The position numbers and the translations under genes were made by a program. From IMG/VR virus record IMGVR_UViG_3300014204_000132: DNA of 64,000 nt, one strand, 5' to 3'. The notes beneath the pieces were generated by a model. That model did not search any database, was not told the origin of the DNA, and saw only the letters and a list, made by a program, of their open reading frames with translations. The DNA comes from a virus (Duplodnaviria > Heunggongvirae > Uroviricota > Caudoviricetes). Below, piece after piece: positions 16,625-57,749 of the stretch (its first letter is position 1; each line of letters starts with the position of its first letter).

Positions 16625-19600
16625 TTAATTTAATTTTTTAAGTTCTCTTTTTAACTCCGATAAATCATCCAGCCAAAGTTCATGTAAAGTTTTTTTAGAA
16701 TATTCTTCCAATTCTTTAATTTTTTCAGCTAATTGATTTTTTAAATTATCATATTTTTCTTTGGAAAGAGAATATATCACCATATTTAATAGATAATCAT
16801 ACGAATCATCTATTTTATCCAAATTATTTTTTATACATTCCTGTTCAATAAATTCTTTATTTTTATTGGATATAACGATTTTATTTTTAATTATTAAATC
16901 TATAAAATTACACCTGTTATTAAGTATCTGTATATCTCTTTTGAATTTATCAATTACAGAATTTTTTCTTTTATCATAATAATCTAATCTGATTTCCATG
17001 AAATCATCTATTACTTCATAAATGTCCCCGTATAATTTGATTTTATCATTCTTATCAAACAAATTCATGTTCGAATTATTGATATACGATGTTAAATCAA
17101 ATATTTTCAAAATATAATTAGGGGTAAATAATTTTAAAGATTCTTTAGGTAATTGTATTATAATATTGACGTTCTCATCTGTACTATGCTTAGTATAATT
17201 CAATATAACTTTAGTATCAATCAATTCATTTAATTTGAAATAAAATTTATCATACCACAATCCAATCGGTAATTCAGTTATTTTTAACCTATCATTATGT
17301 AACTCAAATGTACCCTCTGTAACATATCGGTCTTTATCCAGATATATTTTACCTTTAAATTTATTATAATATGGATTAATATTTTTTCTTGGATTAGCTG
17401 AACCTTTTATTTTTTTTTCAATATAATCAACCAAATCAACAATATTATATTTTGGAACTAATGTTGACCAACCAGTTCCAATACCTTCTGCCCCATTCAC
17501 TAATACCATTGGAATAATAGGTATATAAAATTTAGGTTCAATCACATATCCATCATCATCTAAATATTCTAAAACTGCATTATCTTCTTTCCTGAAAATA
17601 TAATCTGTTATAGGAACTTTATTTGTAAAAATATATCTCGAAGCAGATGAATCTTTACCACCCATTGAACGAGTTCCAAATTCTCCAGATGGTATAAGCA
17701 AATTTATATTATTTGAACCAACAAAATTCTGAGCCATATTGATAATTGTTTGTTCAAGTGACTGTGGGCCATGATGATAAGAGGTGGCTTCAATAATAGC
17801 ACCTGATAATAAACCCACTTTAACTTCATCTTTATAATTCTTTTTATTTAAAGTATAAAGTATTTTTCTATGAGTTGGTTTAAATCCATCAATAACACTT
17901 GGTATTGACCTAATATTATCGGCCATACTAAATTCAATAAGTTCATCATTTATAAATGAATCATAATATGTTTTTTTACCAAATTTATCTACTTCATTGT
18001 TTGGTTTATATTTCAACAACCAATTTTTTCTATCTTCAGCCCTATTTTTACGAAAAGCCATATCAATTAAATCCTTGGTTATTTCTGGATTTCGATAATT
18101 AAAACGTATTAGATGTTTATCAATTTCTTTAAAGAATTCTTTTGATTCATGTGGTTCTATTGTACCAAGTCCTTTATAATATTTTACAAACCAATTATCA
18201 ACATTTACAGTTTCTTTCCATCTCCTGTATTCATTTAATTTATAAAAATATTTAACAACAGCACCTTTTTTTACTTTAACAATTGGTGTAACAAATTCGT
18301 ATATAAAGTCAGCTTCAAGTAAATATGGGAAAAATGTTTCAAACAAATTAATCAACAACCCTTTAATATGTGAACCATCATGGTCTGCATCGGTAAAAAG
18401 AACAACTTTACCATATCTTAATTCAGAAGTATTTGTATATTTTTTACCAATTTCTAAACCTAAAGCTGATATAATACCCTTAATTTCTTCATCTTCTAAT
18501 ATTTTTTTAACTGCTATATCTCTAACATTTAAAGGTTTTCCTTTCAATGGAAATGCACCATAATAATCTCTACCAGTCACTGAAAATCCTCTTAAACAAG
18601 AAGAAAGTGCTGAATCCCCTTCAGTTAAAAATAATAAACACATTCTACTATCTTTAGTACCAGCTCTATTAGCATCATCTAATTTTCTCACTTTAACAGT
18701 TCTACCATTCTTATTTTTAACAGCTTTCTGTAAAGCTAATTGTTCTTTGAGTTCAATATAATCAATAATTTCCTGAGTAATATCTGATTTTAATATTTTC
18801 TTAATAAAATTATCTGATATTTCAATATCTTTAAATGATGATATTTTGGTATTTAATATTTCTTTAACCTGACTGTCAAATTCTGGATTAAACACTTTAG
18901 TATTTAAAAATAAAAATATTTTTGATTTAATATCATTCGGATTAATCTCGAATTTATTTCCTCGTGAAAGGGATGATTTTAGTTTACTTGTTATTTGATT
19001 TATAGCATGATTTACATGAGTTCCACCTTGTAATGTAGCCAGACCATTAACCAATGAAATTTGTTCAAATGAATCAGAAAAAGTTTTCATAACACCTATT
19101 TCCCATAAATCGTTTATTTTTTCATAAATAATTTCATGGTTATCGAGCATGAATAATTTCATATAATCTTTAAATGATTTTATACTAATCAGATTATTGT
19201 TGAAATATACTTTCACATTTGGATTATATGCAGCTATATCAATAGTTCTCTTAATCATAACTGATTTAATATCATCAATTAATTCTATAAATCCGAACCT
19301 TTCGTAATCTGGGAGAAAAGATATTTTAGTAAATTTTTTTGAAGATACTCTAATGTGTGGTTTTGGTAATTTACCTTTTTTATCCGATGATAAATTATCA
19401 GTAAATACTTGTTTGTAATAATTTTTACCATCAGCAGTTTCAACTATAAACTCTTTAGAAAATATATTACAAGCTTTTGCACCTATACCATTTCGACCAC
19501 CCCCTATTCGTTGTTCTGTATCATCATAATTTTCACCCGTAAGTAAATGTCCAAAAATTAATTCTGGTACATATACTTTTTCATCTTTATGAATAACAAC

Positions 19601-19918
19601 AGGTATACCATCACCATCATTCCAAACAGATATTTTATTATTATCAATTTCAATTTTAATAGATTTAACTCTACCTGTCTTTACACTGTGGTCAGAAGCA
19701 TTAGTAATAATTTCATCAAATATTTTTATTAATCCAGCATTATAATTAATTTCTTTCTTAACTATTTTTAAATTTTCAAAATTATCTATATTATCAACAG
19801 TGAATACCATTCTTCTTTCAGAATTAATTGAACCAATATAAGTATCACTACGCTGTAAAACGTGTTCTCTCTGGGAGAGTTTCTTATATTGTTCTTCAAT
19901 CTTCTTTTTCTTAACCAT
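16625..19918 (-). CDS. type IIA DNA topoisomerase, fused ATPase plus breakage-reunion subunits
   Basis: GHKL N-box IFDEIITNASDH, GGRNGIGAKACN, Toprim LTEGDSA...DADHDGSHIKGL, PLKGKPLNV, DGFKPTHRKILY and the active-site tyrosine motif SRYIFT. 1097 aa. Confidence 0.9.
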   Translation of the reverse strand: MVKKKKIEEQYKKLSQREHVLQRSDTYIGSINSERRMVFTVDNIDNFENLKIVKKEINYNAGLIKIFDEIITNASDHSVKTGRVKSIKIEIDNNKISVWNDGDGIPVVIHKDEKVYVPELIFGHLLTGENYDDTEQRIGGGRNGIGAKACNIFSKEFIVETADGKNYYKQVFTDNLSSDKKGKLPKPHIRVSSKKFTKISFLPDYERFGFIELIDDIKSVMIKRTIDIAAYNPNVKVYFNNNLISIKSFKDYMKLFMLDNHEIIYEKINDLWEIGVMKTFSDSFEQISLVNGLATLQGGTHVNHAINQITSKLKSSLSRGNKFEINPNDIKSKIFLFLNTKVFNPEFDSQVKEILNTKISSFKDIEISDNFIKKILKSDITQEIIDYIELKEQLALQKAVKNKNGRTVKVRKLDDANRAGTKDSRMCLLFLTEGDSALSSCLRGFSVTGRDYYGAFPLKGKPLNVRDIAVKKILEDEEIKGIISALGLEIGKKYTNTSELRYGKVVLFTDADHDGSHIKGLLINLFETFFPYLLEADFIYEFVTPIVKVKKGAVVKYFYKLNEYRRWKETVNVDNWFVKYYKGLGTIEPHESKEFFKEIDKHLIRFNYRNPEITKDLIDMAFRKNRAEDRKNWLLKYKPNNEVDKFGKKTYYDSFINDELIEFSMADNIRSIPSVIDGFKPTHRKILYTLNKKNYKDEVKVGLLSGAIIEATSYHHGPQSLEQTIINMAQNFVGSNNINLLIPSGEFGTRSMGGKDSSASRYIFTNKVPITDYIFRKEDNAVLEYLDDDGYVIEPKFYIPIIPMVLVNGAEGIGTGWSTLVPKYNIVDLVDYIEKKIKGSANPRKNINPYYNKFKGKIYLDKDRYVTEGTFELHNDRLKITELPIGLWYDKFYFKLNELIDTKVILNYTKHSTDENVNIIIQLPKESLKLFTPNYILKIFDLTSYINNSNMNLFDKNDKIKLYGDIYEVIDDFMEIRLDYYDKRKNSVIDKFKRDIQILNNRCNFIDLIIKNKIVISNKNKEFIEQECIKNNLDKIDDSYDYLLNMVIYSLSKEKYDNLKNQLAEKIKELEEYSKKTLHELWLDDLSELKRELKKLN

Positions 19919-20247: not shown

Positions 20248-21066
20248 ATGACTTATATTCATAATTGGAATTCATTTAACGAGAATATAAATTTATTAAA
20301 CAATTTAAACGATTTTGATTATATATTAGAAGGTAATAATACCTTAGAATTTATGAAAGAAAAAATTAAAAATATGTTTGATAAATTAAAAACAAAGTCA
20401 CAAATAAAAGAATTTTTTAAACAGGTTGTCACTAAAATTTTTAAATCTAAATTACCTTATAAAAGAATTTTATTAATATTCTTAATATCAATTTCAACAT
20501 CTAAAATAGCCTCATCTGATTTAAAAAGAATAGATTTCATCGAAAACGAAATTAAGGATTATGTAAATAAATTAATAGATTTTGGATTAACTCCATACAA
20601 AGACATATCATATATGGATGCATCTTCAGATGAAACATTAGAATTTCTCGATAAATTAGCATATAGAGAATCAAGAAATAATTGGTTATCTGCTAAAAAA
20701 GGATACGTTGGTAAATATCAATTCGGAAAACATGCTTTTAAAGATATAAAAAAAAATCAAATTGATTCAGCAACATTCGTTAATAATCCTAACTTGTATC
20801 CAGAAGACGAACAAAATAGAGATGTAATAAAATTATTAAAAAATAATAAATATTATTTAAGAAATTATTACAAATATATCGGTCAAACTATTGGTGGTAT
20901 TAAAATAACCGAATCTGGAATGTTAGCAGCATCTCATTTAGTAGGTCAAAAAGCAGTTAAAAATTTTTTATCATCAAATGGTAAAATAAATGATAAAGAT
21001 GGTAATGGTGTTTCTTGTTATAATTATTTAAAATATTTCACTGGTTATAAATTAAATTTAATATAA
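20248..21066 (+). CDS. lytic transglycosylase (SLT)-like domain protein
   Basis: ESRNNWLSAKKGYVGKYQFG fits the E-S...G-x-x-Q SLT catalytic region. 272 aa. Confidence 0.4.
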   Translation: MTYIHNWNSFNENINLLNNLNDFDYILEGNNTLEFMKEKIKNMFDKLKTKSQIKEFFKQVVTKIFKSKLPYKRILLIFLISISTSKIASSDLKRIDFIENEIKDYVNKLIDFGLTPYKDISYMDASSDETLEFLDKLAYRESRNNWLSAKKGYVGKYQFGKHAFKDIKKNQIDSATFVNNPNLYPEDEQNRDVIKLLKNNKYYLRNYYKYIGQTIGGIKITESGMLAASHLVGQKAVKNFLSSNGKINDKDGNGVSCYNYLKYFTGYKLNLI

Positions 21067-21623: not shown

Positions 21624-21725
21624 AATATATTATTATTTTTTTTATATATTAAAAACATTTGTTTTTTTTTAATATTATCTTGAAATTTTTTCAAAAATAT
21701 ATATATATATAAATTAAAAATATTT

Positions 21726-22280
21726 TTGATAATGAAATCCAGAAAATTTATATTTTCTTTAAACGAGTGGTTGAATGAACAATTCAACCCACATAAATAT
21801 GAATCATTCTCAGAACTTACAGAAAAAGATTTATATGATATTGGTAAATGGGGGTTAGAAAACGATTTTTCAACAAGTGGTGCATGGGATGGTGCTGATA
21901 ATTTAGAAGAAGCTATAAAAAATATTGTTGATGGTTTTAAATTATTACTCAAAGATAAATTTCCCGATGGTTTTAATGAAATACCTAATATTATTAAAGT
22001 ATATAGATTTATTATATTAAAATCCCCAGAAGAATTAAACACAGAACATTTAGGATATTCATGGTTTTCTAATCCTGAAAGAATAACGAATCCTTATTTT
22101 AAACAACAAATGTGGCATTTAAAAGAACCCAATTTATATTTAATAACAGCAGAAATTACTGAAAGTAAAATTGATGTTCCAAGAAGTTTATTTCAACGAG
22201 ATATGGTCTGGGTAGAAAATGAAATTGTTTTGAAAGACGATACAAATATTAAAATATTATCTTTAGATAAAATACACTAA
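21726..22280 (+). CDS. hypothetical protein
   Basis: 184-aa ORF of normal composition. The competing minus-strand ORF 21614..22042 is low-complexity. Confidence 0.45.
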   Translation: MIMKSRKFIFSLNEWLNEQFNPHKYESFSELTEKDLYDIGKWGLENDFSTSGAWDGADNLEEAIKNIVDGFKLLLKDKFPDGFNEIPNIIKVYRFIILKSPEELNTEHLGYSWFSNPERITNPYFKQQMWHLKEPNLYLITAEITESKIDVPRSLFQRDMVWVENEIVLKDDTNIKILSLDKIH

Positions 22281-33535: not shown

Positions 33536-33778
33536 TTACACCAGTTCTTCTAATATTTTTATTAATTCTTCCAATATAAATTGTGATTTATATGGCATTT
33601 TAGATTCAACTTTATCAGCTTCAGTGTTTATTTTAGCAATTACATCTTTAGATATTTGTCGTGCAACATAAGCTAATTCTGGATATCTGTCAGCACCTGA
33701 TATAGGTTTACCTTTAGAATCAAGTCCATTATCACGTTCTTCTTCTGTATAATTTTCAAACTTCATAATATCTTCCAT
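33536..33778 (-). CDS. hypothetical small protein
   Basis: 80-aa ORF. Confidence 0.4.
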   Translation of the reverse strand: MEDIMKFENYTEEERDNGLDSKGKPISGADRYPELAYVARQISKDVIAKINTEADKVESKMPYKSQFILEELIKILEELV

Positions 33779-33813
33779 ATTAAATGTGTTATTTTTAGGT
33801 TATATATTAAAAA

Positions 33814-38369: not shown

Positions 38370-38609
38370 AATACTTTTTATTTTTATATATTATAGCATT
38401 GTGGGTATCAGTAAGTATTTTAAAAATAAAAATATTATTTAAATGTAACCTTCCCCACATTACTCTCGTAAAATCTACGATTCAAATATAATTTGAATAT
38501 TTCATTGAATATTTTTTGATTATTTTGAATATTTTTTTCGTAGGATTTTTTTTATAAAAATAAACCTATTATTTTTGACACATAATTACAAACTAAAAAT
38601 TATACGGAT

Positions 38610-40103
38610 ATGAAAACAACAAAAATTTATTTCTTAGCACTCGCAGTTCTGACTGCTTTCGTTCTGACCTTAACATCATGTGAGAAAGACGAAGAATTTC
38701 TTAATCCTGAACCTAAAATTGCTGATACTAATATTGTTATCAGCCAAAACGGTGATACACTTGTTAATGGTGATAGTAATAATGTCACTGATACCACTGT
38801 TGGTTATCATCGTGAATATGTTAATCAATTCGATTTAGCCAATGTATCTAAGTTGAAAGTTTTTTCGCAACCTGATGGTTTCGTTGATTCAATTTGGGTA
38901 TATGATGTTTATGGTGATACTACTTTTGTTGTACCTATGAGCAACAAAATCGAAATGCACGATGCAAATTTAAATTATGCCTTTTCGACTATTGAAAACA
39001 TGGAGCTTGTTAGCAACTTTCTTAAAATGACTGCCGATTTTGTAGTTAGTACATATTATCCTTCTTCTAATAATACAACTGGTATTCAGGAATACACAAT
39101 GAAGTCTGCTACTATTGCCGAAATGTCAACAGTAATGGTTAATAAAGAAGATGGTACTATTGAAACTATTGAAGAAACTCCTGTTACTGATGGTGCATAT
39201 GTTGTATTACCTAATAACGATTGGACTTGGGTTAATAACGCTGGTCTTACTGTTACTTTTAGTGACGAATCATCTTCTAAAACTGGTTCGGTTATTAATA
39301 TTAATAATGCTGAATTTGCTACAATGTTAGCTGATAATTATACCGACTTCTTTAATACAACTGGTTATGAAATATCAAGTCCTTCCAATTTCGCTTGTAC
39401 TAAAACTATTAAGTTATCAAACGGTGATGTGTATGGTTATATAACATTCATACCTAATAGTAATTTGGGTGCAACATCTTGGACTTTTGTAACAGTCGTT
39501 AAAATTATAAGTAGCGGTTCTTTCTCACTAAGTTATGTAAAAACATCTGCTAATTATTCTGATTTCAATAATTCTTTTAATCTTTTGATTAATGATAACA
39601 CGGCTTTAAGTGAATATGGTTATACACCTGATATGCGTTCTTTGATAAAAGGTAATAAAGTTATTTCTCAGATTAACACTGGTACACTTGATAGTTATGT
39701 TTGGATGAAAGGTTATATGTTTGCTCCATCATTCACTATGTATGATTTATCAACAAAAAACTTGAACGCTTTTACAAACCCATCAAACACTATCAGTGAT
39801 GGTTATAACAACCATAAACTTACTTCTAAGATGATTTTATTCGGTGACTACATTTATTATATAACTGAAGAAGATGGTTCTAATTATGTGACTAAAATTC
39901 AGATTAGTACTATCAATACAACAAGTCAGCTTAATGTTGTATCGGCTGGTTCAAAAATCATAACCACAGCTATCGAATCGATTTCGACTACTGAAAATGG
40001 TTACTTCATCCTGACAAACGGTACTACTAACTACTTCATATATGAAGATGGTCATATGACAACTGGAACTACTACACCTGCTGGTGATGTTATCAACTTC
40101 TAA
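38610..40103 (+). CDS. lipoprotein (signal peptide with lipobox LTSC)
   Basis: N-terminus MKTTKIYFLALAVLTAFVLTLTSCEKDEE is a bacterial type-II signal peptide with a lipobox Cys followed by acidic residues. 497 aa, Thr/Ser/Asn-rich. Confidence 0.6.
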   Translation: MKTTKIYFLALAVLTAFVLTLTSCEKDEEFLNPEPKIADTNIVISQNGDTLVNGDSNNVTDTTVGYHREYVNQFDLANVSKLKVFSQPDGFVDSIWVYDVYGDTTFVVPMSNKIEMHDANLNYAFSTIENMELVSNFLKMTADFVVSTYYPSSNNTTGIQEYTMKSATIAEMSTVMVNKEDGTIETIEETPVTDGAYVVLPNNDWTWVNNAGLTVTFSDESSSKTGSVININNAEFATMLADNYTDFFNTTGYEISSPSNFACTKTIKLSNGDVYGYITFIPNSNLGATSWTFVTVVKIISSGSFSLSYVKTSANYSDFNNSFNLLINDNTALSEYGYTPDMRSLIKGNKVISQINTGTLDSYVWMKGYMFAPSFTMYDLSTKNLNAFTNPSNTISDGYNNHKLTSKMILFGDYIYYITEEDGSNYVTKIQISTINTTSQLNVVSAGSKIITTAIESISTTENGYFILTNGTTNYFIYEDGHMTTGTTTPAGDVINF

Positions 40104-40301: not shown

Positions 40302-41363
40302 TTAATGTTTTTCAATTAAATCAACGATTTCAGAATAAAAATTGTTTTTAATTGCTGAATTATAAGCACCACTATAATTATTAATAAAATCACTTCTCGA
40401 TTTACATAACAATGCAATTTCTTTACATTTTTCTTTTGTCCAATAACCGTTCGGGTTTCTTAAAATATTCATGTGTGAACATAAATTATCTAACCATTTA
40501 TTTTTTCGACACAACTTATAAGCAGTGTAAAAATTTTTACTAAATTCTTTTTTCGATTTACACAATAACACACTTTTTTCACACTGTTCATATGTCCAAT
40601 AACCATATGGTCTACTTTTGGTATTCATGTGTAAACATATTTCATTCATCCATTTATTAAAACGAGCAGAATTGTAAGCACTACTATATTTAATGTGAAA
40701 AGCTTTTCTTGATGAACAGGTTGAAGCAACCTTTTGACATCTTTCTTTTGTCCAATATTTATTAGAGCCTCCTAATGAACCAGCTTTTGCTTTATTTAAA
40801 ATATTCCAACCAGCCTGTTTATATTTATTAATAAAATATTCTTCTAATATTTGTGCTTCTTCTTTAACCACGTAATCTGATAATTGTTTACATATGGGAT
40901 TAATAATCATTTTTTTATATTTTAGTACTGGACTATTCTTATTATAGTTATGATAATTTGTTCTTTCTTCTAAATTCCCAGTTAATCCTATATATGCCGA
41001 ATTATCTTCAAATTCCCACACATATATACATCTAAAATATTTATTACCAATATTTTTCATATGGGAACATATCGTATTTAGCCACCCCTTTCTATATGCT
41101 GCATGATACGCACTGTTATATTTTATATAAAAATCACTTCTTGAATAACATAATAATGACACTTCTTGACATTTATCATAATTCCAGAAATTCTTTGGTT
41201 TATGTATCTTAAACATATGAATACATATAATATCTAACCAATTCTTATTTATTGCTTTATAATATGCACCAACATGTTTACTACATAATTCTGTTCTTGA
41301 ATCACATAATAATGCAACTTCTTTACACCTCTCAAAAGTCCAATATCCATTTTTATTTTTCAT
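40302..41363 (-). CDS. GIY-YIG nuclease with six repeated 45-aa modules
   Basis: Central FRCIYVWEFEDNSAYIGLTGNLEER (GIY-YIG). It is flanked by repeats of GYWT.E.C.E.A..C.SR..F...AY..A.KN.WL..IC.HM. Confidence 0.6.
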   Translation of the reverse strand: MKNKNGYWTFERCKEVALLCDSRTELCSKHVGAYYKAINKNWLDIICIHMFKIHKPKNFWNYDKCQEVSLLCYSRSDFYIKYNSAYHAAYRKGWLNTICSHMKNIGNKYFRCIYVWEFEDNSAYIGLTGNLEERTNYHNYNKNSPVLKYKKMIINPICKQLSDYVVKEEAQILEEYFINKYKQAGWNILNKAKAGSLGGSNKYWTKERCQKVASTCSSRKAFHIKYSSAYNSARFNKWMNEICLHMNTKSRPYGYWTYEQCEKSVLLCKSKKEFSKNFYTAYKLCRKNKWLDNLCSHMNILRNPNGYWTKEKCKEIALLCKSRSDFINNYSGAYNSAIKNNFYSEIVDLIEKH

Positions 41364-44586: not shown

Positions 44587-44616
44587 AATATATAATTGAA
44601 ATATCTATAAAATAAA

Positions 44617-45315
44617 ATGTTATCATTTGAAAATTTCCTGTTAAGACAGAACGAAGGTTTAATAACAACATATCCAATAGATAAAGCTATTGATACGTTA
44701 AATAATAAATTAATGTATTTACCATTTTGGTATAATATTAAAAAAGATAATGATAGTGTATTTCTCCTAACAGTGGTAGGTGTTTTAAATATAAACCAAA
44801 TAGAAAGTATTTTTGATTTGGTCAACAATTTACTTGGTTATTATTGCTCATTTATAAAATATTATAAAACAAATATTAACAGGGGATATCCATTTATTAA
44901 TATTGAGGATTATATTTTAAAATCAAAAAACTGTAAAAAAATAGATTTTATATTTGAAGCTAAGTTCGATAAAATATTAGGTTATAAACCAGATATTGTT
45001 TATCATGTAACAGATGAGGCGAATTTAGATAATATTAAAAAAGTTGGTATAATACCGAAATCTAAGAACAAAAAATCATTTCATTTAGAGAGAATATATA
45101 TAACTTTAAATAAAGGGGGTGCAGAAAATTTTATAAAAAATTTATCATTTAATGATAATTTATTAGGCATAACTAAATATTATAAATTTTTAGAAATAAA
45201 TATTACAGATAAATTTTATAAAGACATGAAAATTTATAAAGACCCAAACATGAAAGGTGGGTATTATATTTATAATAATATACGACCACAAGACATTAAA
45301 ATAATTGATGGTTAA
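44617..45315 (+). CDS. hypothetical protein (N-terminus MLSFENFLL, CTS-like)
   Basis: 232-aa ORF. Confidence 0.45.
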   Translation: MLSFENFLLRQNEGLITTYPIDKAIDTLNNKLMYLPFWYNIKKDNDSVFLLTVVGVLNINQIESIFDLVNNLLGYYCSFIKYYKTNINRGYPFINIEDYILKSKNCKKIDFIFEAKFDKILGYKPDIVYHVTDEANLDNIKKVGIIPKSKNKKSFHLERIYITLNKGGAENFIKNLSFNDNLLGITKYYKFLEINITDKFYKDMKIYKDPNMKGGYYIYNNIRPQDIKIIDG

Positions 45316-45359: not shown

Positions 45360-48300
45360 TTGATAAATAAAAGTTTCCAATTATTAAAGACTAATCCAGC
45401 ATTAACATCAAATGTTAAGGTAGTTGTTACATCCGATTATAGACTTTATTTTGAGTCTATAAATTCGAATAAGGAATTGGGTGCAACAAAGTATAAACAT
45501 TTTGGTTTGTCAAAGAATTCTTTGATTGAAGATAAGATAAATGAGTTTTATGATGGGTTATCATCGAATTTAGCTTTTGAAGTTAAGTTTGATAATGATG
45601 AAGATATTATGTATAATGATTTTGGAAATCAAATCGATGATACTTATCTATCTGGTGCAAAAAATATTGAAGACCAATGGTATAATGAAGAATTCGAGTA
45701 TTTCGCTCCATTATTTGTAAGAAAAACTGATTTGCCTGATAATTTCATTATAATGAGAGTTGATGAACCTGCCGTTTATAAATTAGAAAATGATAAATAT
45801 CGTATTCAAGGATTAACTAAAGAAAATTTCAGAACTGAAATACTTGATAAGTGGAAATGTATATCAATATTTGATATGCAAAAAACGTCAGACTTGGGTG
45901 TGTTTTTAGCAAATAATATAACCGAAAACCCAAGATTTCCAATCAAATCATTTGAATTAGATATAAAGAAGTTTAACTTTTCGAGGTGGTTCGGATATGA
46001 TTATGATACTGGTATTTTCACAGAAAAGGAATTAATACTTGATGATAAATTATATTTTGAAACACCAGATTTTAAATTAGAAAGCTTTATTACAAATGGT
46101 TTTAAAAATAATAATTTAATTTATCCACACATTTTAAATTTAAAATTTTTATTTGATGATACCCCAGCCACACCAGATACTATTAAAAAGTGGTCAATGA
46201 ATAGATATTATGGTTTCTACCTTGAAAGTATGGAGAAAATGGAAAAATTAACATCATATGTAACACCAACTATTAGAACTGATGTTAAATTAATAAATAA
46301 TATTTTTATTAAAAATGACACAATTATTAGTGTGAATCCATTTGACGATTGGGACGAAAAATTATCATATTATATTTACGTTAATAATGATTTACATAGA
46401 GTTAAAAGAACATTAGAAAATAGTGTTTATGTTTATAAGGTTATAAGTGATGTAAAACTGGACGATATTTTTGATACATTACAAGTTAACATCAACACTA
46501 TTACTATAAATTATAATGATATTGACGGGAGAAGTTATATCAATAGTACATCAGGTAATTTAATAATAAATTCTTATATTGATGGTAGTGGTCGCACTAA
46601 TAGTATGGATGGTGATTTATTTTTAATTGAAATTAATGGAAAATTTCATGTATTAAAAAATATACAAACATTAGTTGGTAGTACATATGTAAACAACTAT
46701 TACATTCAAACAGATTATGCTATTAATTCATCAAAATTATTTTTAGAATATTGGATTGGTGGTAAAACCAGTGAATATTATAAGAGAATGAATATCATGG
46801 ATTCAAACCCAGATACCTCACCTTTAACATATCAAATATATAGAATTAGGTTTTCGGATATAAAAGACTTTGATTTTGATAGGGTTCATACACACTTTTC
46901 TGATTTTGATTATGAAAAATCTTTTTATCATAAAACAAATGAAATCAAACTCTATGCAACTGAATATAGAGATATAATTGACCCTAAAGAATATAAATTA
47001 CATGAGTATGGGGAAGATGGTCAATATCAAATAAAAAATGTGTCATCTGAATATATTGCGACAGATGAATTATTTGTAATATCAGCAAATCATAAAGAAT
47101 TAGGTGATATATGGAGAAAAAATCAATCTGTATGTAAATGGGGTTATGAAGGTTCTAATAGTCATTGTGATTATCCTTATAAATTAAATAACTCTTTAAG
47201 GACAGGTTCTGTTTTTAATAGAACAGTTAATCCCTTTAAATTTGAACCTGATGAGGTTAATAAAACACACGATTATTTTTATAGAGTAGGTAATTTTAAC
47301 TCGTCATCTACATATACAAGTTCTGTAACACCTGTTTATTATTATAAACAAACTACTAATATAACAACAGATTTATTAGACCAAACATTTAGTTCTAAAT
47401 TTAATCTGGATTTATATTTAAATTCTGATATGGACTACTTTATGTATTTCTTTAAAAATAAAGAGAGATATTACGATTTTGGTAAAACATATGAAAGAAT
47501 GTATGAAAAATATTCCATAATAAATAGTGGTGATAGGTATCAGAATTCAAGCGTATTATTTAAAGGTTTGAAGTTTAATATTTTTGGTGTTACAGATTTT
47601 CAATTGAGTGATAATAATTTAATACAAGAAGTTTTAATCGATGAAACAAAAAAATATAATGATTACAAATTTTCCATTTTATTATCAGAGTATTATAGAA
47701 GATTTTCCAGTGCTGGTAATTTAATTCAAGAAGAAACAAGGGGGTTACAAAATAATAGTGTTATCGATGTTACTAAGAATGGTATTCATATTTTTGTGAA
47801 CGATAAACATAAAAACATTTTAATTATAATAAATATTGTTGTTCCGATACTTAATACTATTGGAGATTTCAATAATTTAAATTATTTATTAAATGAAAAA
47901 TATGGATTGTATTATGCAAAACAAATTAATGGTTATAGGATAGATAATTTTTCAGCATCTCTTACTAATCGTTATCAACCAACAATGTTAACGGCTAATA
48001 ATTTTAGTTCGGCCTTAAATAATATGAATGATAAATGTCAATTTGAGAATTATATAAATTATTATTATATAAATAGTGATGGTATGTCTGGTAAAACCAT
48101 GATTACCGATTATAATAATTCTACATTAAGTAGTGTCACTGGATGGCTGAAAAAAGTACCACCTGTTATTATAAATGTTGAATTTCCAACTGAATTAGTT
48201 TTGAAAAAGGATTCTTATAAATATGTTGGATATTTTGGCCCAGACCACAATATATATAATAGTTACAATAGTGCGAATCCAGCTTTGGCCGTTAAAAGAA

Positions 48301-48728
48301 GTAGTCAAATTGACGATTATTTGGCAAGAAGAATATTAATAAACGAGGTCGAAATTAAACCAAGACCACAAGTTCATCAAGAAGAATTAATTTATAATTA
48401 TTCTATTTATAGATACAGTGGTTCGTATGAACCCATATTTAAAACTATTGAATTGTTTAATCCTTATGTAATAGTTTCTGGCACGACATATTATAGACCA
48501 TGTGGTTATTATTTTAATGATAGTTATACTCGATTTGGTATGGTCGATGAGGTTATGTATTCTAAAGTAAATAGAAGGGGAAATATTTTAATGCTTAGAA
48601 ATGCTGCGAATGATAAATCTATTTATCCAATGGTTGATGAATTTGGGTATCAATATCGTGATGGTTTTATATTTAAATCGGGTTGGGATGATGAGATATT
48701 TATCGAAACTGATTATCCAATAATATAA
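45360..48728 (+). CDS. large hypothetical protein (probable structural)
   Basis: 1122 aa, Asn/Tyr-rich. Confidence 0.5.
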   Translation: MINKSFQLLKTNPALTSNVKVVVTSDYRLYFESINSNKELGATKYKHFGLSKNSLIEDKINEFYDGLSSNLAFEVKFDNDEDIMYNDFGNQIDDTYLSGAKNIEDQWYNEEFEYFAPLFVRKTDLPDNFIIMRVDEPAVYKLENDKYRIQGLTKENFRTEILDKWKCISIFDMQKTSDLGVFLANNITENPRFPIKSFELDIKKFNFSRWFGYDYDTGIFTEKELILDDKLYFETPDFKLESFITNGFKNNNLIYPHILNLKFLFDDTPATPDTIKKWSMNRYYGFYLESMEKMEKLTSYVTPTIRTDVKLINNIFIKNDTIISVNPFDDWDEKLSYYIYVNNDLHRVKRTLENSVYVYKVISDVKLDDIFDTLQVNINTITINYNDIDGRSYINSTSGNLIINSYIDGSGRTNSMDGDLFLIEINGKFHVLKNIQTLVGSTYVNNYYIQTDYAINSSKLFLEYWIGGKTSEYYKRMNIMDSNPDTSPLTYQIYRIRFSDIKDFDFDRVHTHFSDFDYEKSFYHKTNEIKLYATEYRDIIDPKEYKLHEYGEDGQYQIKNVSSEYIATDELFVISANHKELGDIWRKNQSVCKWGYEGSNSHCDYPYKLNNSLRTGSVFNRTVNPFKFEPDEVNKTHDYFYRVGNFNSSSTYTSSVTPVYYYKQTTNITTDLLDQTFSSKFNLDLYLNSDMDYFMYFFKNKERYYDFGKTYERMYEKYSIINSGDRYQNSSVLFKGLKFNIFGVTDFQLSDNNLIQEVLIDETKKYNDYKFSILLSEYYRRFSSAGNLIQEETRGLQNNSVIDVTKNGIHIFVNDKHKNILIIINIVVPILNTIGDFNNLNYLLNEKYGLYYAKQINGYRIDNFSASLTNRYQPTMLTANNFSSALNNMNDKCQFENYINYYYINSDGMSGKTMITDYNNSTLSSVTGWLKKVPPVIINVEFPTELVLKKDSYKYVGYFGPDHNIYNSYNSANPALAVKRSSQIDDYLARRILINEVEIKPRPQVHQEELIYNYSIYRYSGSYEPIFKTIELFNPYVIVSGTTYYRPCGYYFNDSYTRFGMVDEVMYSKVNRRGNILMLRNAANDKSIYPMVDEFGYQYRDGFIFKSGWDDEIFIETDYPII

Positions 48729-51961: not shown

Positions 51962-52264
51962 ATGGGAAAAATTAATAATTTTTATGATATTGTAACTGTT
52001 GTTTTAGATAGATTTAAAAAAAATTTAAATGAACCAATTAATTCTTTTTCAAAAGAAATTGTAAAAGAATTAGAAAATATTGGATATTTTGATATGAAAC
52101 AAATATCATTCTCTTGTGATTATAACGCAGATGACCCAGCCAGTATTTATTTAAGTATTCAACCACAGAATGATTACACAAAATATATTATGAAAGTTTA
52201 TTTTAATAAGTTTAGTAGGAAATTGAAAATTAAAGACATATTAGGCGATGAATTATATAGATGA
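51962..52264 (+). CDS. tail-motif family small protein, array member 1
   Basis: 100 aa. Ends FSRKLKIKDILGDELYR. Overlaps the next gene by 17 nt. Confidence 0.5.
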   Translation: MGKINNFYDIVTVVLDRFKKNLNEPINSFSKEIVKELENIGYFDMKQISFSCDYNADDPASIYLSIQPQNDYTKYIMKVYFNKFSRKLKIKDILGDELYR

Positions 52265-52574
52265 TGTATATACCAGATATGTGAGAGAAAAATATATAGT
52301 TTTTCAATCTAAATTCAATAAGAATTGTTCCAGAAAAGAATTTAAAAGATATTTAGAACAAGATATAAAAACTTATGTGTTGGAAGATTTAAAAATAATA
52401 GGTATTAATTTCAAAGATGTTAAGTTTAATTTTGATATAGTTCTTAGGTACGATTTCACTCTGGGTACATTAAGAATATTGGCTGATAATAAAACTATTA
52501 ATTTATTTCACAAGAAAAAGATTGAAATTGAACGATTATCAAAACTAAAAAATATATTTGAAGATGACATCTAA
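52248..52574 (+). CDS. tail-motif family small protein, array member 2
   Basis: 108 aa. Ends KKKIEIERLSKLKNIFEDDI. Confidence 0.5.
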   Translation: MNYIDDVYTRYVREKYIVFQSKFNKNCSRKEFKRYLEQDIKTYVLEDLKIIGINFKDVKFNFDIVLRYDFTLGTLRILADNKTINLFHKKKIEIERLSKLKNIFEDDI

Positions 52575-52929
52575 TATTGATTTTTCTGATTCAAATTGTC
52601 AATTCATTCATCAGAATGTTAATGATATTTTTAAACGACATATTATATGTTTTGATTTTGAGTCTGTTGATATTTTGAATATTAAAGAAATTATTAAAGA
52701 AAGAATAATCTATATGGTGTCTGGTATGGTTAGTGATTTTAGAGAAGAAGATTTTCGTTTTGATGTTGAATTAAATGTAGATTATGAAAGTATGGCTGAT
52801 ATATTCCAATTAAAGATAAACTTACACCCATTACACCCATATGCGAATATGATATTTAAAACAAAGAATTTTCACATTTTATCAAGAAAACTGAAAATTG
52901 AAGAAATTATCAACGATGAATTATCATGA
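52558..52929 (+). CDS. tail-motif family small protein, array member 3
   Basis: 123 aa. Ends SRKLKIEEIINDELS. Confidence 0.5.
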   Translation: MKMTSNIDFSDSNCQFIHQNVNDIFKRHIICFDFESVDILNIKEIIKERIIYMVSGMVSDFREEDFRFDVELNVDYESMADIFQLKINLHPLHPYANMIFKTKNFHILSRKLKIEEIINDELS

Positions 52930-53248
52930 GTCTAATGTAGAATTTATAAAGTCGGAACTTTACAGTGAAATTATTAATATATCGCCACGTAGAAATAATA
53001 CTTGGTATCCTATTGAAAACCCAGAACGAAGAATGTTATACAAATTAATTACAAATTTTGTATATAGTTTAACTAATATTTATATAAAACATTGTACTAT
53101 GATTTTTTATTTAAGCGATAGCACATTTAATATTAGAATTTATCCTGTTGATAATATATCAATTACTCTTTTTAATAATACTGATTTAATTTATCTGAAA
53201 AAGGTAAAAGATAGGAAGAAGAAACTCGAAAAAATATTCTCACAATGA
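52898..53248 (+). CDS. tail-motif family small protein, array member 4
   Basis: 116 aa. Ends DRKKKLEKIFSQ. Confidence 0.45.
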   Translation: MKKLSTMNYHESNVEFIKSELYSEIINISPRRNNTWYPIENPERRMLYKLITNFVYSLTNIYIKHCTMIFYLSDSTFNIRIYPVDNISITLFNNTDLIYLKKVKDRKKKLEKIFSQ

Positions 53249-53592
53249 ATTACTTTAATAAAAATATTTTTTATTTGATTGAATTTTTTAGAAAAGAGGT
53301 GGTGAATCTTTATAGCGAATCGAGTAAATCCTCATTATCACTAAAGTCTAAAGAAGATTATATTAAAGTTCGCATATTACAACATATTAGATTTTTAACA
53401 AATGAACTTATTTACGGGTTTGTTGTAAAAGTTGATTTTATTGGTAATGATGATTACTTTTTATTTATATACGATATGGATAAACTTGCAACAAATGTTT
53501 TTTATAATTTTGATTTTGACCAGTTGAAAAAACAAAAAGATAGAAAAATTAAAATAGAAGAAATATTTTCCGATGATAGGTGTACATGTTAA
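53245..53592 (+). CDS. tail-motif family small protein, array member 5
   Basis: 115 aa. Ends DRKIKIEEIFSDDRCTC. Start overlaps the previous stop (ATGA). Confidence 0.5.
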   Translation: MNYFNKNIFYLIEFFRKEVVNLYSESSKSSLSLKSKEDYIKVRILQHIRFLTNELIYGFVVKVDFIGNDDYFLFIYDMDKLATNVFYNFDFDQLKKQKDRKIKIEEIFSDDRCTC

Positions 53593-55205: not shown

Positions 55206-55649
55206 TTAGCTTCCACCAACGGCAGACATCAATCCAGTAGGATTTGACATATTTCCAGTTTTGGCATAAAGTTTACCACTTTTAGGGTCTACACTATAAA
55301 TTTTAGATAATTTAGCATTAACCAAGGCATCATTATAGGCTTTTATAAAACTAAATAAAACATCTGGTTGACTTTTAGGATTTTTAATAAATTCGTTCTT
55401 TTTAGCTATTGCTATATCACCTGATTTTGTATTAGGATTAGATAAATTGAAAGAATTTACGATACTTCCAATTAATTTATTCTGTATTAGATTATCAATA
55501 TCAGCATCTTCTAACTTTCCTTTAGCAGCTAAATCAGTTATAAGTTGTTTCTGTTCTTTATTCATGCCGAATAACCCTTCATTGGTTTCAGATGTATCCA
55601 CATCTAATGAATATTGTTCGAATGTCTTTAAATGTTTTAAATCTTTCAT
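55206..55649 (-). CDS. putative packaged internal protein (CTS-like N-terminus MKDLKHLKTFEQYS)
   Basis: 147 aa. N-terminal basic-hydrophobic-F-E motif as in 56666 and 57180. Confidence 0.45.
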   Translation of the reverse strand: MKDLKHLKTFEQYSLDVDTSETNEGLFGMNKEQKQLITDLAAKGKLEDADIDNLIQNKLIGSIVNSFNLSNPNTKSGDIAIAKKNEFIKNPKSQPDVLFSFIKAYNDALVNAKLSKIYSVDPKSGKLYAKTGNMSNPTGLMSAVGGS

Positions 55650-55671
55650 TTTAGTTTGTTAATTTTTTAAT

Positions 55672-55760
55672 TATATATTAAATAAAAAAATCATTTTTTC
55701 TATTGATGATATATATTAAATAAAAAAATCATTTTTTCTATTGATGATATATATTAAATG
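55672..55760. repeat. 38-bp tandem repeat, 2.3 copies, in divergent promoter region
   Basis: tatatattaaataaaaaaatcattttttctattgatga is present exactly twice (55672-55709 and 55710-55747), plus a degenerate third start. Confidence 0.8.
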
Positions 55761-55830
55761 AAAAAAATGAAAAAAATTCCAAAGAAACCCACACCAACAA
55801 AATATATAAGAATAAATTTATTTATTTATT

Positions 55831-56160
55831 TTGACAACAATTTACTTAATAGAATGTATAAATGAATATGATGAACCTATATATAAAATAGGTCATACTA
55901 AAAATGACCCAATTAAAAGATTGCGCCAATTACAAACAGGGAATGGGAGAGTATTAAAATTAGTTGGATATTATTCAACCAGATATGGTACTAAACTTGA
56001 AAAAACATTACATAGGAGATATTCTCATTTAAACGTTACTAATGAATGGTTTAGATTATCATTCGAAGATGTTATTAATTTTAAAAAAGTGTGTGATATT
56101 ATTGAGAGTGGGTTAAGAACATTAGAAGAATCAAATAATTATTTTTTTAAAAAAATATAA
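55831..56160 (+). CDS. T5orf172/MUG113-type GIY-YIG-like domain protein
   Basis: IYLIECINEYDEPIYKIGHTKNDPIKRLRQLQTGN matches the T5orf172 core. 109 aa. Confidence 0.55.
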   Translation: MTTIYLIECINEYDEPIYKIGHTKNDPIKRLRQLQTGNGRVLKLVGYYSTRYGTKLEKTLHRRYSHLNVTNEWFRLSFEDVINFKKVCDIIESGLRTLEESNNYFFKKI

Positions 56161-56179
56161 AAAAACTAATAAAAAAACT

Positions 56180-56665
56180 ATGATAATAACTATTAAACCA
56201 GAGGATATTATAAAAAGATGTTTGTGGTCAGATTATAGAAGGTTTGCTTTGAAAAATCTATCTGAAGAAGAAATTGCCGAAATAATTGAAAAAAATGAAC
56301 CAACTGTAATATCAGAAGAAATAGCTTTTGTTATAGGATTATTAAAATATATTGAAACAGATAATTTAGTACACCGATTTAACTTATATTTATTAGAAAA
56401 CTTACAAATAAAAAGCAATCTTTATGATGATAATCTTTATATTAATAAGAATGTTATTATTAAAGATGTAGTTAGTTTTAAATACCGTTTTCCAGAAGCT
56501 TATAAAGCCGAAAAAAATTATATCACTGCTATACAAGATGTGGTTGAGTATATCGATGCTTTAAAAGAAAAAATGGACGGTTTAAATATTAAATATATTG
56601 TTAATAACGAGAAAACTTATGAGTGTTTAAGCTCAAATGAAATAAAGAAGTTATTATCTTTATAA
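56180..56665 (+). CDS. hypothetical protein
   Basis: 161-aa ORF. Confidence 0.45.
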   Translation: MIITIKPEDIIKRCLWSDYRRFALKNLSEEEIAEIIEKNEPTVISEEIAFVIGLLKYIETDNLVHRFNLYLLENLQIKSNLYDDNLYINKNVIIKDVVSFKYRFPEAYKAEKNYITAIQDVVEYIDALKEKMDGLNIKYIVNNEKTYECLSSNEIKKLLSL

Positions 56666-57163
56666 TTATTCATTATAAGGAGTAACTGAAATTATTTTGA
56701 CTTCTGAATCTGGGAATAATGTTATTTCGTTTTCATTTACCCACACACTATTAGTTAATAGTGTTCTTTCAAGGTCTATATTTGATTTATCTGTTTCTAT
56801 CTCATATAGAAACATAGGCGAATCATCATCAATACCTATATCAGCTATAAAGTGGTCATCTATATACATAGGGTCTGTTGTATAATGGTCACCCAAATCA
56901 AATGTATTAACTTCTTCTATATTTTCAGAAGCAAGAACCCGAAATAAAGTTATGGGGTTGGGTTGTTTTTGTATATAGTGAACATGTTCTATCAAATGTT
57001 CTAAAATTTCATCATCATCAAAAATACTATCACCAGAAGTACCTATTTTTTCTAAGAACGCTTCGACATCTTCATCTGTTATATCATTAATATCAGCAAT
57101 TTTTATTTTATCTATTATAGAACCACCACGACTGAAGGTTTCGAAAAGTTTAAGATGTTTCAT
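56666..57163 (-). CDS. putative packaged internal protein (CTS-like N-terminus MKHLKLFETFS), highly acidic
   Basis: 165 aa, very D/E-rich. Confidence 0.45.
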   Translation of the reverse strand: MKHLKLFETFSRGGSIIDKIKIADINDITDEDVEAFLEKIGTSGDSIFDDDEILEHLIEHVHYIQKQPNPITLFRVLASENIEEVNTFDLGDHYTTDPMYIDDHFIADIGIDDDSPMFLYEIETDKSNIDLERTLLTNSVWVNENEITLFPDSEVKIISVTPYNE

Positions 57164-57179
57164 TTTTATATTTTTATTT

Positions 57180-57749
57180 TTAATAACCGACTTTGTATAA
57201 TTTTCGGCTGGTGTGTAAATCTAATCCGTAATCTATTAAAACTGCTTTATCATTTATCTCACCCCAAGATGATATGGATGCTAAGTCATTAGCATCCAAA
57301 TTGTATTTATTTACCAAATTTCCCAATTTAACAGCAAATGGTTTTTCGATATAAAATCTTTCCATTTCATCACCACCCCAACCTTTTAACCAATGCATAA
57401 ACCCATTGAATTGAAATGTTGTTAATTCTTCAAATCTTTCTACTGAAATCATTTTAGCTTTTTCTTGAATTAACCACTCCCCTTTTTCACTATACTCTAA
57501 AACAATAGCGAGGACATCAGAAAATTCTTTATCTGTCCCTGCTTTTATTTCGGTTATATTTTGAGCTATACCTTTGAGGTTTTTAGCTAATTTTAATACT
57601 CTGTTTTCATCCAAAACATATACAGCTCTGGCTGTTCCAAACTTTTTATCTGGTATTTCTCGTTGAACTACATCTTTTCTTTGTTTGAAAGTTTTTAAAC
57701 CTTTCAATGTTTCTTGGTTAAAATGTTCAAATAACTGTATAAATCTCAT
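57180..57749 (-). CDS. putative packaged internal protein (CTS-like N-terminus MRFIQLFEHFNQE)
   Basis: 189-aa ORF. Confidence 0.45.
   Translation of the reverse strand: MRFIQLFEHFNQETLKGLKTFKQRKDVVQREIPDKKFGTARAVYVLDENRVLKLAKNLKGIAQNITEIKAGTDKEFSDVLAIVLEYSEKGEWLIQEKAKMISVERFEELTTFQFNGFMHWLKGWGGDEMERFYIEKPFAVKLGNLVNKYNLDANDLASISSWGEINDKAVLIDYGLDLHTSRKLYKVGY

Follow-up and report, generated by a model that had tools for sequence, protein, structure and literature searches.

A portable T4-type N-terminal tag on unrelated proteins of a megaphage clade: a probable counterpart of the T4 capsid-targeting sequence

Why should several unrelated proteins of an uncultured phage, two of them encoded directly downstream of a virion protein gene, begin with nearly the same ten or so residues? 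The question is raised by positions 55206-57749 of IMG/VR record IMGVR_UViG_3300014204_000132, a 64,000-nucleotide stretch (the whole of which is called the window in what follows), where an earlier note, made from the sequence alone, had pointed to three genes, and to three more elsewhere, as encoding candidate injected internal head proteins with a motif like the capsid-targeting sequence (CTS) of T4. All six N-termini that it quoted, and the open reading frames (ORFs) that they head, are present in the ORF calls of the window. It is close to certain that the shared N-terminus, here called the tag, is a real, conserved and portable peptide signal, and rather probable that it is the megaphage counterpart of the T4 CTS, serving capsid loading, cleavage and injection. 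Overall, the earlier interpretation is partly supported. The three flagged genes, their tag-coding segments and the adjoining virion protein gene are as follows (class-A and class-B scores refer to two matrices described below).

57180..57749, minus strand: tagged cargo 1; 189 amino acids (aa), tag MRFIQLFEHFNQE, then a predicted minimal protein-kinase-like domain.
57711..57749, minus strand: tag-coding segment of cargo 1; residues 1-13, aromatic pair F7/F10, class-B score 15.3.
56666..57163, minus strand: tagged cargo 2; 165 aa, tag MKHLKLFETFS, a helical N-domain and a C-domain predicted to be ADP-ribosyltransferase (ART) superfamily-like.
57131..57163, minus strand: tag-coding segment of cargo 2; residues 1-11, aromatic pair F7/F10, class-B score 12.9.
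55206..55649, minus strand: tagged cargo 3; 147 aa, N-terminus MKDLKHLKTFEQYS, leader MKDLKHLKTFEQYSLDVDTSETNE, class-B score 15.4.
57752..60118, minus strand: 788-aa neck-like virion protein; first gene of a transcription unit that runs into two of the tagged genes.

The motif F[ED]x[FYW] starts within the first 13 residues of 6 of the 79 window genes, where the internal rate in the same proteins predicts 0.84 (binomial p 2e-4); when the first 20 residues of each protein are put in random order, 0.9 genes on average, and never more than 4 in 300 rounds, have the motif. Because this motif was defined after looking at the window, it was tested on an independent genome, the 735-kb 'uncultured phage' LR756501, which is related to the window phage and was analysed over its full 735 kb (1003 ORFs called). 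There F[ED]x[FYW] is found at the heads of 49 of 1003 genes, with 12.6 expected (p 3e-15), and the T4-like arrangement Ar-x-x-Ar-x-x-E (Ar, aromatic) at the heads of 65, with 10.4 expected (p 1e-30). Both excesses persist in the order-shuffle control of the same genome (59 genes against 6.2 for the T4-like pattern, 49 against 12.5 for F[ED]x[FYW]).

Two forms of the tag emerge from LR756501: class A, with the consensus M-[IM]-K-K-[YF]-N-Q-F-[IL]-[NK]-E-[ASG], and class B, L-K-x-x-x-F-[ED]-x-[FY], to which the three flagged proteins belong. Scoring matrices for both were built from LR756501 only. The class-B matrix gives the flagged proteins 12.9-15.4 (the 99.9th percentile of internal windows is 6.7) and also picks 33536-33778 and 15973-16596; the pair of aromatic residues three apart is found in 56666, 57180, 55206 (as F10/Y13), 15973 and 44617, with scores far above internal background. 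LR756501 itself carries near-identical tags on unrelated proteins, among them MEKFRKLKTFENYEK, which is almost that of 55206-55649, and MAKLKMFENFGNE. What had been read as a three-gene cluster is therefore far too small a description: the tag is carried by 59-98 of the 1003 LR756501 genes, and by roughly 6-10% of genes in the phage clade. (Regular-expression counts are too low for lineage variants; in LR756502, where the tag takes the form MKHLKK[FY]NES, 4 of 70 ORFs are caught and about 18 are visible by eye.) The tagged genes of LR756501 are dispersed around the genome with mild clustering (18 adjacent pairs, 9.5 expected; p 0.005). The other tagged genes of the window are these.

15973..16596, minus strand: tagged gene; 207 aa, N-terminus MIKGFYEFINEG, read as MIKGFYEFINE|G, aromatic pair F5/F8, class-A score 25.0, the best T4-type (class A) tag in the window.
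14788..15186, plus strand: tagged gene, MKHIRMFEEFSIVE|N; the ORF opens at 14782.
44617..45315, plus strand: tagged gene; 232 aa, MLSFENFLLRQNE|G, aromatic pair F4/F7.
33536..33778, minus strand: tagged gene, absent from the earlier note's list; 80 aa, MEDIMKFENYTEE, class-B score 22.9.
21732..22280, plus strand: paralog of cargo 2 (ART-like family), also absent from that list; tag-like leader MKSRKFIFSLNEWLNE|Q.
20248..21066, plus strand: tag-like N-terminus, likewise not listed before; 272 aa, MTYIHNWNSFNE|N, weak transglycosylase-like match; a weaker case than the others.

For the second of these the start had been given as (M)MKHIRMFEEFS at 14782. The MKHIRMFEEFS part stands; the ORF from 14782 reads MYMKHIRMFEEFS (MYMKHIR...), and 14788 is the likelier start because of the spacing of an upstream promoter-like box (described below).

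The tag is attached to proteins that have little else in common. When the first 25 residues are removed from the 59 strict-motif genes of LR756501, the remainders fall into 51 BLAST clusters. Common descent of all the tagged proteins as paralogs is rejected: the window holds the pair 56666/21732 only, and the 59 genes of LR756501 hold one eight-member family and one pair. Where a Pfam domain can be placed in tagged LR756501 proteins, it starts after the tag, at residue 27 of a glutamyl-tRNA synthetase (GluRS), residue 14 of CoaE and residue 22 of a radical SAM protein; other tagged proteins of this genome are PPK2, a cREC protein, a methyltransferase, an HD-domain protein and a nucleotidyltransferase. 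AlphaFold2 models of cargo 1 and cargo 2 have mean pLDDT (predicted local distance difference test) values of 82.7 and 83.3, and their only low-confidence stretch is the N-terminus (residues 1-36 of cargo 1, 1-13 of cargo 2), with pLDDT below 50 over the tag.

The synthetase (LR756501 133267-134895, plus strand; L008:33267-34892) is a complete class I Glu/Gln-tRNA synthetase (Pfam 1e-90) with a 26-residue tagged leader, MKKMELKNLTEFEQF, and lies within a run of tagged small genes downstream of a neck-like gene. Some small tagged LR756501 proteins have a further motif in common, DPYGEE[NDI]W, which lies ~10-25 residues beyond the tag (examples are 132555-132890, 132880-133257, 176207-176557 and 297634-297945, and further 338419-338715, 475399-475854, 579019-579333 and 670628-671005); these may be a paralogous family, or the motif may be a second functional element.

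Conservation is of the peptide. Codons at the conserved positions vary within residue class (TAT/TTT/TTC/TAC for the aromatics, ATA/TTA/ATC/GTA/CTT for the aliphatic position, GAA/GAG for Glu), and at the nucleotide level the segments that encode the tags of the window genes show no conservation, so that a DNA-level motif is rejected. In a 640-kb close relative (a 639,979-bp contig whose cluster proteins are 74-85% identical to those of the window, and which came up again when IMG/VR was scanned with the capsid protein), the place behind the neck-like gene is taken by a different 168-aa protein with the tag MKYIKLFEHF, which resembles the window proteins only in its first 10-18 residues. Among homologs of 57180 the tag follows MK[YH]IK[LT][FY][ED][YH]F[ND]xE, and those of 56666 have MKYIKLFENF and (L)KYIKVFEDF. 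The leader of 55206-55649 (MKDLKHLKTFEQYSLDVDTSETNE) stops at a family-conserved (L/T)NE|G boundary; in distant homologs recovered by exhaustive search the leaders are variable (AESL.E[YF]R...) and the LNE|G junction is conserved.

Resemblance to the T4 CTS, which had been proposed earlier, holds quantitatively, in matrix scores as well as in the conservation of functional positions. Applied to 207 T4 ORFs (from 1 to 135 kb of the genome), the LR756501 class-A matrix scores gp61.1 at 22.0, IPII at 16.8 and IPIII at 15.9, and the fourth ORF at 4.7. Its four strongest columns (Ar0, Ar+3, [IL]+4 and E+6) correspond to residues 4, 7, 8 and 10 of the CTS, MKTYQEFIAE (PMC8442874). In a suppressor analysis of the IPIII CTS, residues 4 and 7 act mainly in targeting, 8 and 10 in processing; this CTS and 'CTS-like' leaders of T-even relatives were already known (PMC9026906). 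The earlier assignment of MKTYQEFIAE to all three internal proteins is right for IPII and IPIII and wrong for IPI, which starts MKTFKEF and has a 19-residue leader (MKTFKEF...ITE|A, cut after residue 19), so that aromatic pair and cleavage site lie apart. This displaced site therefore provides a T4 precedent for the class-B tags of the window.

As for cleavage, the downstream [LI]-x-E sites that had been proposed have the canonical form in three genes, 15973 with INE|G, 14788 with IVE|N and 21732 with LNE|Q; they are not clear in the three flagged proteins, whose sequences at this point are weighed below. Across LR756501, NE[GAS] occurs at residues 6-30 of 51 genes, with 15.6 expected (p 6e-13), and in 28 of the 59 strict tags the Glu is followed by A, S or G. 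This clade-wide enrichment supports a processing site in general.

The highest-scoring T4 ORF, gp61.1 (NC_000866 18966-19130, minus strand), is a 54-aa protein encoded next to the primase gene; it starts MKTFKEFIKED, its first seven residues are those of IPI, and its IKE|D resembles a gp21 site. It may be an unrecognised head-internal peptide of T4, or it may be a counter-example to the equation of motif with packaging. In Tenacibaculum phage PTm1 no tag was found in the 30 kb around the head module, and PTm1, though the nearest cultured relative by its neck-like protein, is therefore no experimental proxy.

Gene matches support a T4-type head module with a gp21-like protease in this lineage. 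Side by side in LR756501 lie a portal gene (Portal_T4, 1e-69), a gene whose 807-aa product has a gp21-type protease domain at its N-terminus, and a major capsid protein (MCP) gene (Gp23, 1.8e-25); the genome also has a second, small Peptidase_S77 paralog. The 640-kb relative has the corresponding portal, 804-aa protease/scaffold protein and MCP, 52-63% identical to those of LR756501. The 788-aa protein beside the flagged genes, previously judged a probable virion protein, is indeed a homolog of an annotated neck protein: its residues 302-573 match PTm1 ORF-292 ('neck protein') and gp88 of Sphingomonas phage PAU, and along its entire length it shares 41.7% identity with an LR756501 ORF (searches against Pfam and PHROGs gave no match). 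In each of the three genomes read at this place (window, LR756501 and the 640-kb relative) tagged small genes follow the neck-like gene; in LR756502 a few kb separate it from the tagged arrays.

Tagged genes and head genes also share a promoter-like box. The TAATATATAA box occurs 24 times in the window, with 13.2 expected, and none of 100 shuffles reached 24. Upstream of gene starts it has the form (T)AATATATAA, at the following places (nt, nucleotides).

60141..60149, minus strand: box AATATATAA, 22 nt upstream of the ATG of the 788-aa ORF.
55671..55679, minus strand: box AATATATAA, 21 nt upstream of the ATG of 55206-55649.
55801-55809: box AATATATAA, 21 nt upstream of the TTG of the T5orf172 gene.
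16618-16626: box, 21 nt upstream of 15973-16596.
33800-33808: box, 21 nt upstream of 33536-33778.
44587-44595: box, 21 nt upstream of 44617-45315.
14760-14768: box, 19 nt upstream of 14788-15186.
21642-21650 and 38384-38392: further boxes.

The form TATATATAA is found upstream of 21732-22280, and 20248-21066 is also preceded by a box. The box core ATATATAA lies upstream of 5 of the 8 genes tagged by regular expression and of 5 of the 71 others (Fisher p 5e-4), these last including the 788-aa operon-head gene and the tag-like genes 20248 and 21732. Neither 57180 nor 56666 has a box of its own; both are in the operon headed by the boxed 788-aa gene. In LR756501 the box precedes 40 of 98 tagged and 176 of 905 untagged genes (p 4e-6), and in LR756501 and the 640-kb relative alike it precedes the portal, protease, MCP and neck-like genes. 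Going by its distribution, the shared box would link the tagged genes to head-gene expression, and it may mark a late or structural regulon of this phage clade. In LR756502 a tandem array of eight small genes (L026 10153-13473, minus strand; 58-186 aa), each with MKHLKK[FY/I]NE[SGN], sits behind a single TAATATATAA box and resembles a hyperplastic cargo-gene array. The tagged gene 15973-16596 lies directly downstream of a topoisomerase gene, yet has a box of its own.

What the cargos are is suggested by fold rather than by family: searches of the tagged proteins against Pfam, PHROGs, NCBIfam and PDB sequences assigned essentially no family (phrog_4301, for 57180, was the only match apart from faint hints for 44617; 57180 has none in Pfam, and 15973-16596 had no family match). 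From its modelled structure, 57180-57749 appears to have a compact protein-kinase-like fold. Its Foldseek matches in the PDB are all kinase-like (APH(2''), MTR kinase, Lpg2603, POMK and NleH; best E 7.6e-4, TM ~0.4), and G38, R41, K53, D155, D173 and G175 are invariant, with K53, D155 and D173 falling in VLKLAKN...LIDYG. The 56666-57163 protein is probably ADP-ribosyltransferase-like; it and its paralog 21732 give ART-like fold matches and have an invariant R and a nearly invariant E-x-E. A tblastn search of the phage collection with the 56666 protein found no match. No fold could be assigned to 55206-55649. A Tpt1/KptA-like assignment of 44617 had only faint hints (E 0.05-0.07) and is not relied on.

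Homologs of 57180 exist in the jumbo phages XacN1 (ORF170, L002:2863-3510) and Xoo-sp13 (Xoo-sp13_166, L003:2920-3540). They start MKQVRLSQFLSEA and MPMTFSQFLTEA, with a leader of the form F-L-x-E-A that is similar to the last part of the T4 CTS (EFIAEA); leaders of the CTS-like kind may thus extend to Rak2-like jumbo phages. The paper on XacN1 virion proteomics makes no mention of ORF170.

An anti-restriction role, which had been put forward on the model of IPI, is not borne out. The cargos have no similarity to any such family, they are enzyme-like or of unassigned fold, and 56666 is acidic, with an isoelectric point (pI) of 4.2 (the range among cargos is 4.2-9.4). Since the predicted folds are kinase- and ART-like, the cargos would be Alt-like host modifiers rather than IPI-like inhibitors. 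T4 Alt is a head-packaged ADP-ribosyltransferase that is injected with the DNA. By analogy, the cargo types fit this packaged effector and the literature on head-packaged ARTs, which are often packaged in heads by published inference (PMC9503650).

The sequence of events that these observations suggest would run as follows. Together with five or more others in the window, the three flagged genes would encode unrelated cargos, each with a short disordered N-terminal tag (basic residues, two aromatics three apart, then often [IL]-[NK]-E-[A/S/G] or a later acidic site), and would share a TAATATATAA-type promoter with the head genes. The aromatic pair would bind the scaffolding core of the assembling prohead, so that the cargo is enclosed, and a gp21-type prohead serine protease would then clip the leader after Glu. 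The mature proteins (kinase-like, ART-like and the 147-aa protein) would stay in the head, enter the host with the DNA, and act there before any phage gene is expressed. All of this is put forward as inference, from the binding of the core and the clipping of the leader to the presence of the cargo in virions, its injection and what it does as an enzyme. That the tag is a CTS is nevertheless the best supported account of it, because the T4 functional positions are the conserved ones, the lineage has the protease and scaffold, processing sites are co-enriched with the tag, and box and synteny tie tagged genes to head genes.

Several observations weigh against it. The portal, protease, scaffold and MCP genes are not within the 64-kb window, and the head module is known from relatives; both Peptidase_S77 matches are below the Pfam gathering score (22.9 and 24.7 bits, against 27). 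None of the three flagged proteins has an unambiguous [LI]-x-E directly after the tag: the candidate sites are the non-canonical FNQE|T in 57180 and TNE|G in 55206 (LNE|G in homologs), and 56666 has only the LFE inside its tag. The ATATATA box is not exclusive to tagged genes, standing as it does before 19% of the untagged genes of LR756501. The gp61.1 gene, with the same N-terminus, lies among early replication genes of T4 and is not annotated as a head gene; the motif alone may therefore not suffice as evidence. Above all, caution is called for by scale: the tagged genes make up 6-10% of those of LR756501, they are dispersed, they include such housekeeping-type genes as those for GluRS, CoaE, PPK2 and a methyltransferase, and to our knowledge no characterised phage loads so many protein species. 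For this clade, packaging and cleavage are proposed from sequence.

The alternative that survives best, though unlikely, is that the tag is a genuine peptide address with another destination: a phage-built intracellular compartment, a platform for assembly or a dedicated chaperone, or else a phage unfoldase or protease that sets when many phage proteins are active or turned over. Much of what has just been said speaks for it, namely the breadth of the cargo in LR756501, the spread of tagged genes around the genome and the early-gene neighbourhood of gp61.1, as does the range of cargo pI from acidic to basic, unlike that of the basic T4 internal proteins. On the other hand, capsid targeting with gp21 processing is the one function that experiments have defined for this pattern, and it is served by the very positions that are conserved here; the NE[GAS] processing-type site is co-enriched; and tagged genes adjoin a neck-like gene and have the box of the head genes. 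No compartment genes were identified, although no systematic search for them was made.

Rather improbable, too, is a mobile 'gene-start cassette' consisting of box, fixed 21-nt leader and first ~10 codons, reused whenever a gene is gained, with a peptide of little or no function. It has a parallel in the recombination at CTS-coding DNA that shuffles internal-protein genes of T-even phages. The box-ATG spacing is fixed; the 640-kb relative has, at the same locus, a non-homologous cargo with almost identical first 8-10 residues; LR756502 has its tandem arrays of tagged small genes; and homing-endonuclease-like genes lie within the cluster. The opposite-strand genes that interrupt it are these.

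55831..56665, plus strand: 55831-56160, T5orf172/MUG113 gene; 56180-56665, 161-aa protein.

The first has a TTG start and is GIY-YIG-like (Pfam MUG113 2.2e-16, T5orf172 7e-11), and both are kept in the 640-kb relative. A GIY-YIG protein is encoded at 40302-41363 (minus strand), and like 55831-56160 it is inside or beside a tagged-gene locus; such mobile-endonuclease-like genes, to judge from their sequence, fit gene flux at these places. A cassette of this kind would not, however, explain why codons differ freely within residue classes and the tag-coding DNA of the window is not conserved, why the tag is kept across phages whose orthologs are only 35-42% identical, or why tagged genes lie inside operons with no box of their own (57180, 56666 and LR756501 genes 127-135, for example). 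Recombination at the tag could explain its spread; it is not an explanation for selection on residue class.

A compositional or translation-initiation artefact of a 26% GC genome, rich in K, F, E, N, I and Y codons and with A/U-rich 5' ends, is scarcely credible and effectively refuted in its pure form, since, low as the GC content is (22-31%) and K-rich as positions 2-4 of N-termini generally are, shuffling the first 20 residues removes the signal (59 vs 6.2, 49 vs 12.5 and 6 vs 0.9), internal sequence of the same proteins has the motif at the composition-expected rate only, substitutions keep residue class, and only three T4 ORFs (two of them known internal proteins), and none in the PTm1 locus, score strongly.

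The CTS reading thus set among its rivals concerns a very large phage. By its sequence relationships the window is derived from a ~678-kb megaphage, because the flagged-cluster proteins were recovered on a 678,337-bp metagenomic contig and the 788-aa ORF has matches in phages of 634-735 kb (LR756501 and, at 31-35% identity, ORFs of three further genomes of 634-642 kb). Megablast of the region against the deposited phage collection found no DNA-level match; the window is therefore not a deposited phage genome. Its GC content is 22-31% (26% overall), and its genes include a single-chain type IIA topoisomerase, several helicases (one UvsW-like), a phosphoribosyltransferase and many small uncharacterised ORFs. 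The 1097-aa topoisomerase (16625-19918, minus strand) has GyrB-like and GyrA-like parts in one chain, whereas that of T4 is split into gp39, gp52 and gp60. The tagged gene 44617-45315 lies between two ORFs of more than 1000 aa, one of which (45609-48728) matches PTm1 ORF-295.

Signal peptide and lipoprotein types suggest that the host belongs to the Bacteroidota. The 60214-61032 gene (plus strand) encodes a Bacteroidota-style signal peptide, MKKYIFILIAILISTLSFSQ, followed by very low-complexity sequence rich in Y/N/T/R/Q/S; the product of 38610-40103 (plus strand) is lipoprotein-like (…LTSCEKDEEF), and its Cys is followed by acidic residues, as is the case in the export signals of Bacteroidota surface lipoproteins. 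At 51962-53592 (plus strand) lie five consecutive genes for proteins of ~100-121 aa, at least the last two with a common K/R-rich C-terminal motif (…KKVKDRKKKLEKIFSQ and …KKQKDRKIKIEEIFSD). This is probably a small paralog array; its counterpart in the 640-kb relative is a series of genes for 108-125 aa.

How far the argument can be carried depends on scale. A broader proposal, held with somewhat more doubt than confidence, is that the clade uses a T4-type peptide as a general label, loading ~60-100 proteins (6-10% of the proteome) for co-injection. The cargo would then include kinase-like and ART-like enzymes, an aminoacyl-tRNA synthetase, CoaE and PPK2, and the injected proteome would be an order of magnitude more diverse than that of T4, and readable from sequence. 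Huge phages have not been brought into culture, and the majority of their genes lack a functional assignment. If the tag marks capsid cargo, the delivered set (a first-strike toolkit) becomes predictable from sequence, for hundreds of genes clade-wide, and with it which 'hypothetical' enzymes act ahead of phage gene expression. The T4 CTS mechanism would be ancient and scalable instead of T-even-specific, and natural tag variants would be at hand for T4-based protein-delivery engineering. If the tag addresses a destination other than the capsid, it would represent a new sorting system in phage-infected bacteria. Neither a T4-type short tag in huge phages nor one on tens of unrelated enzymes has a prior description in the searchable literature (most subscription journals lie outside it).

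The closest known system is that of the T4 internal proteins. As in IPI, IPII and IPIII, the leader is N-terminal, 10-25 residues long, and basic before two aromatics three apart; as in IPII and IPIII, class A continues with [IL]-x-E and a small residue. The same four positions are conserved, the carrier proteins are unrelated, the loci are variable in gene content, and the megaphage lineage has homologs of gp20, gp21 and gp23. The box is similar in style to the T4 late promoter TATAAATA. What differs is the setting and the number: the carriers are megaphages of 640-735 kb, probably on Bacteroidota, not Tevenvirinae; there are ~60-100 tagged genes per genome against about 3 in T4; the cargos include folded enzymes and acidic proteins, where those of T4 are small, basic and DNA-binding; and the consensus, known here from sequence alone, is shifted from that of T4 according to lineage (M-I-K-K-[YF]-x-x-F-I-N-E-A, MKHLKLFExF or MKHLKK[FY]NES).

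Among packaged enzymes, T4 Alt is comparable with 56666, which would likewise be an ART-superfamily cargo, made with an N-terminal propeptide by a phage that encodes a gp21-type protease. Alt differs in size (682 aa against 165 aa), has no detectable sequence similarity to 56666, and has the leader MELITELFDE, which is not a tag of the IPII/III type. The MuF- or portal-fused and polyvalent packaged effectors described by Iyer, Burroughs and Aravind embody the same idea of head-delivered host-modifying enzymes (PMC9503650); their delivery is inferred from fusion to a structural domain, whereas the cargos here are free-standing, with a leader of ~10-25 residues. Phages related to phiKZ and SPN3US place dozens of proteins in a large capsid, process them with a gp21-related protease and eject them (PMC5694885, PMC13282480). 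Those proteins have long propeptides, often of more than 100 residues, with [S/A/G]-x-E sites and no short linear tag in common; nearly all of the candidates described here, in contrast, share a short tag of the T4 type.

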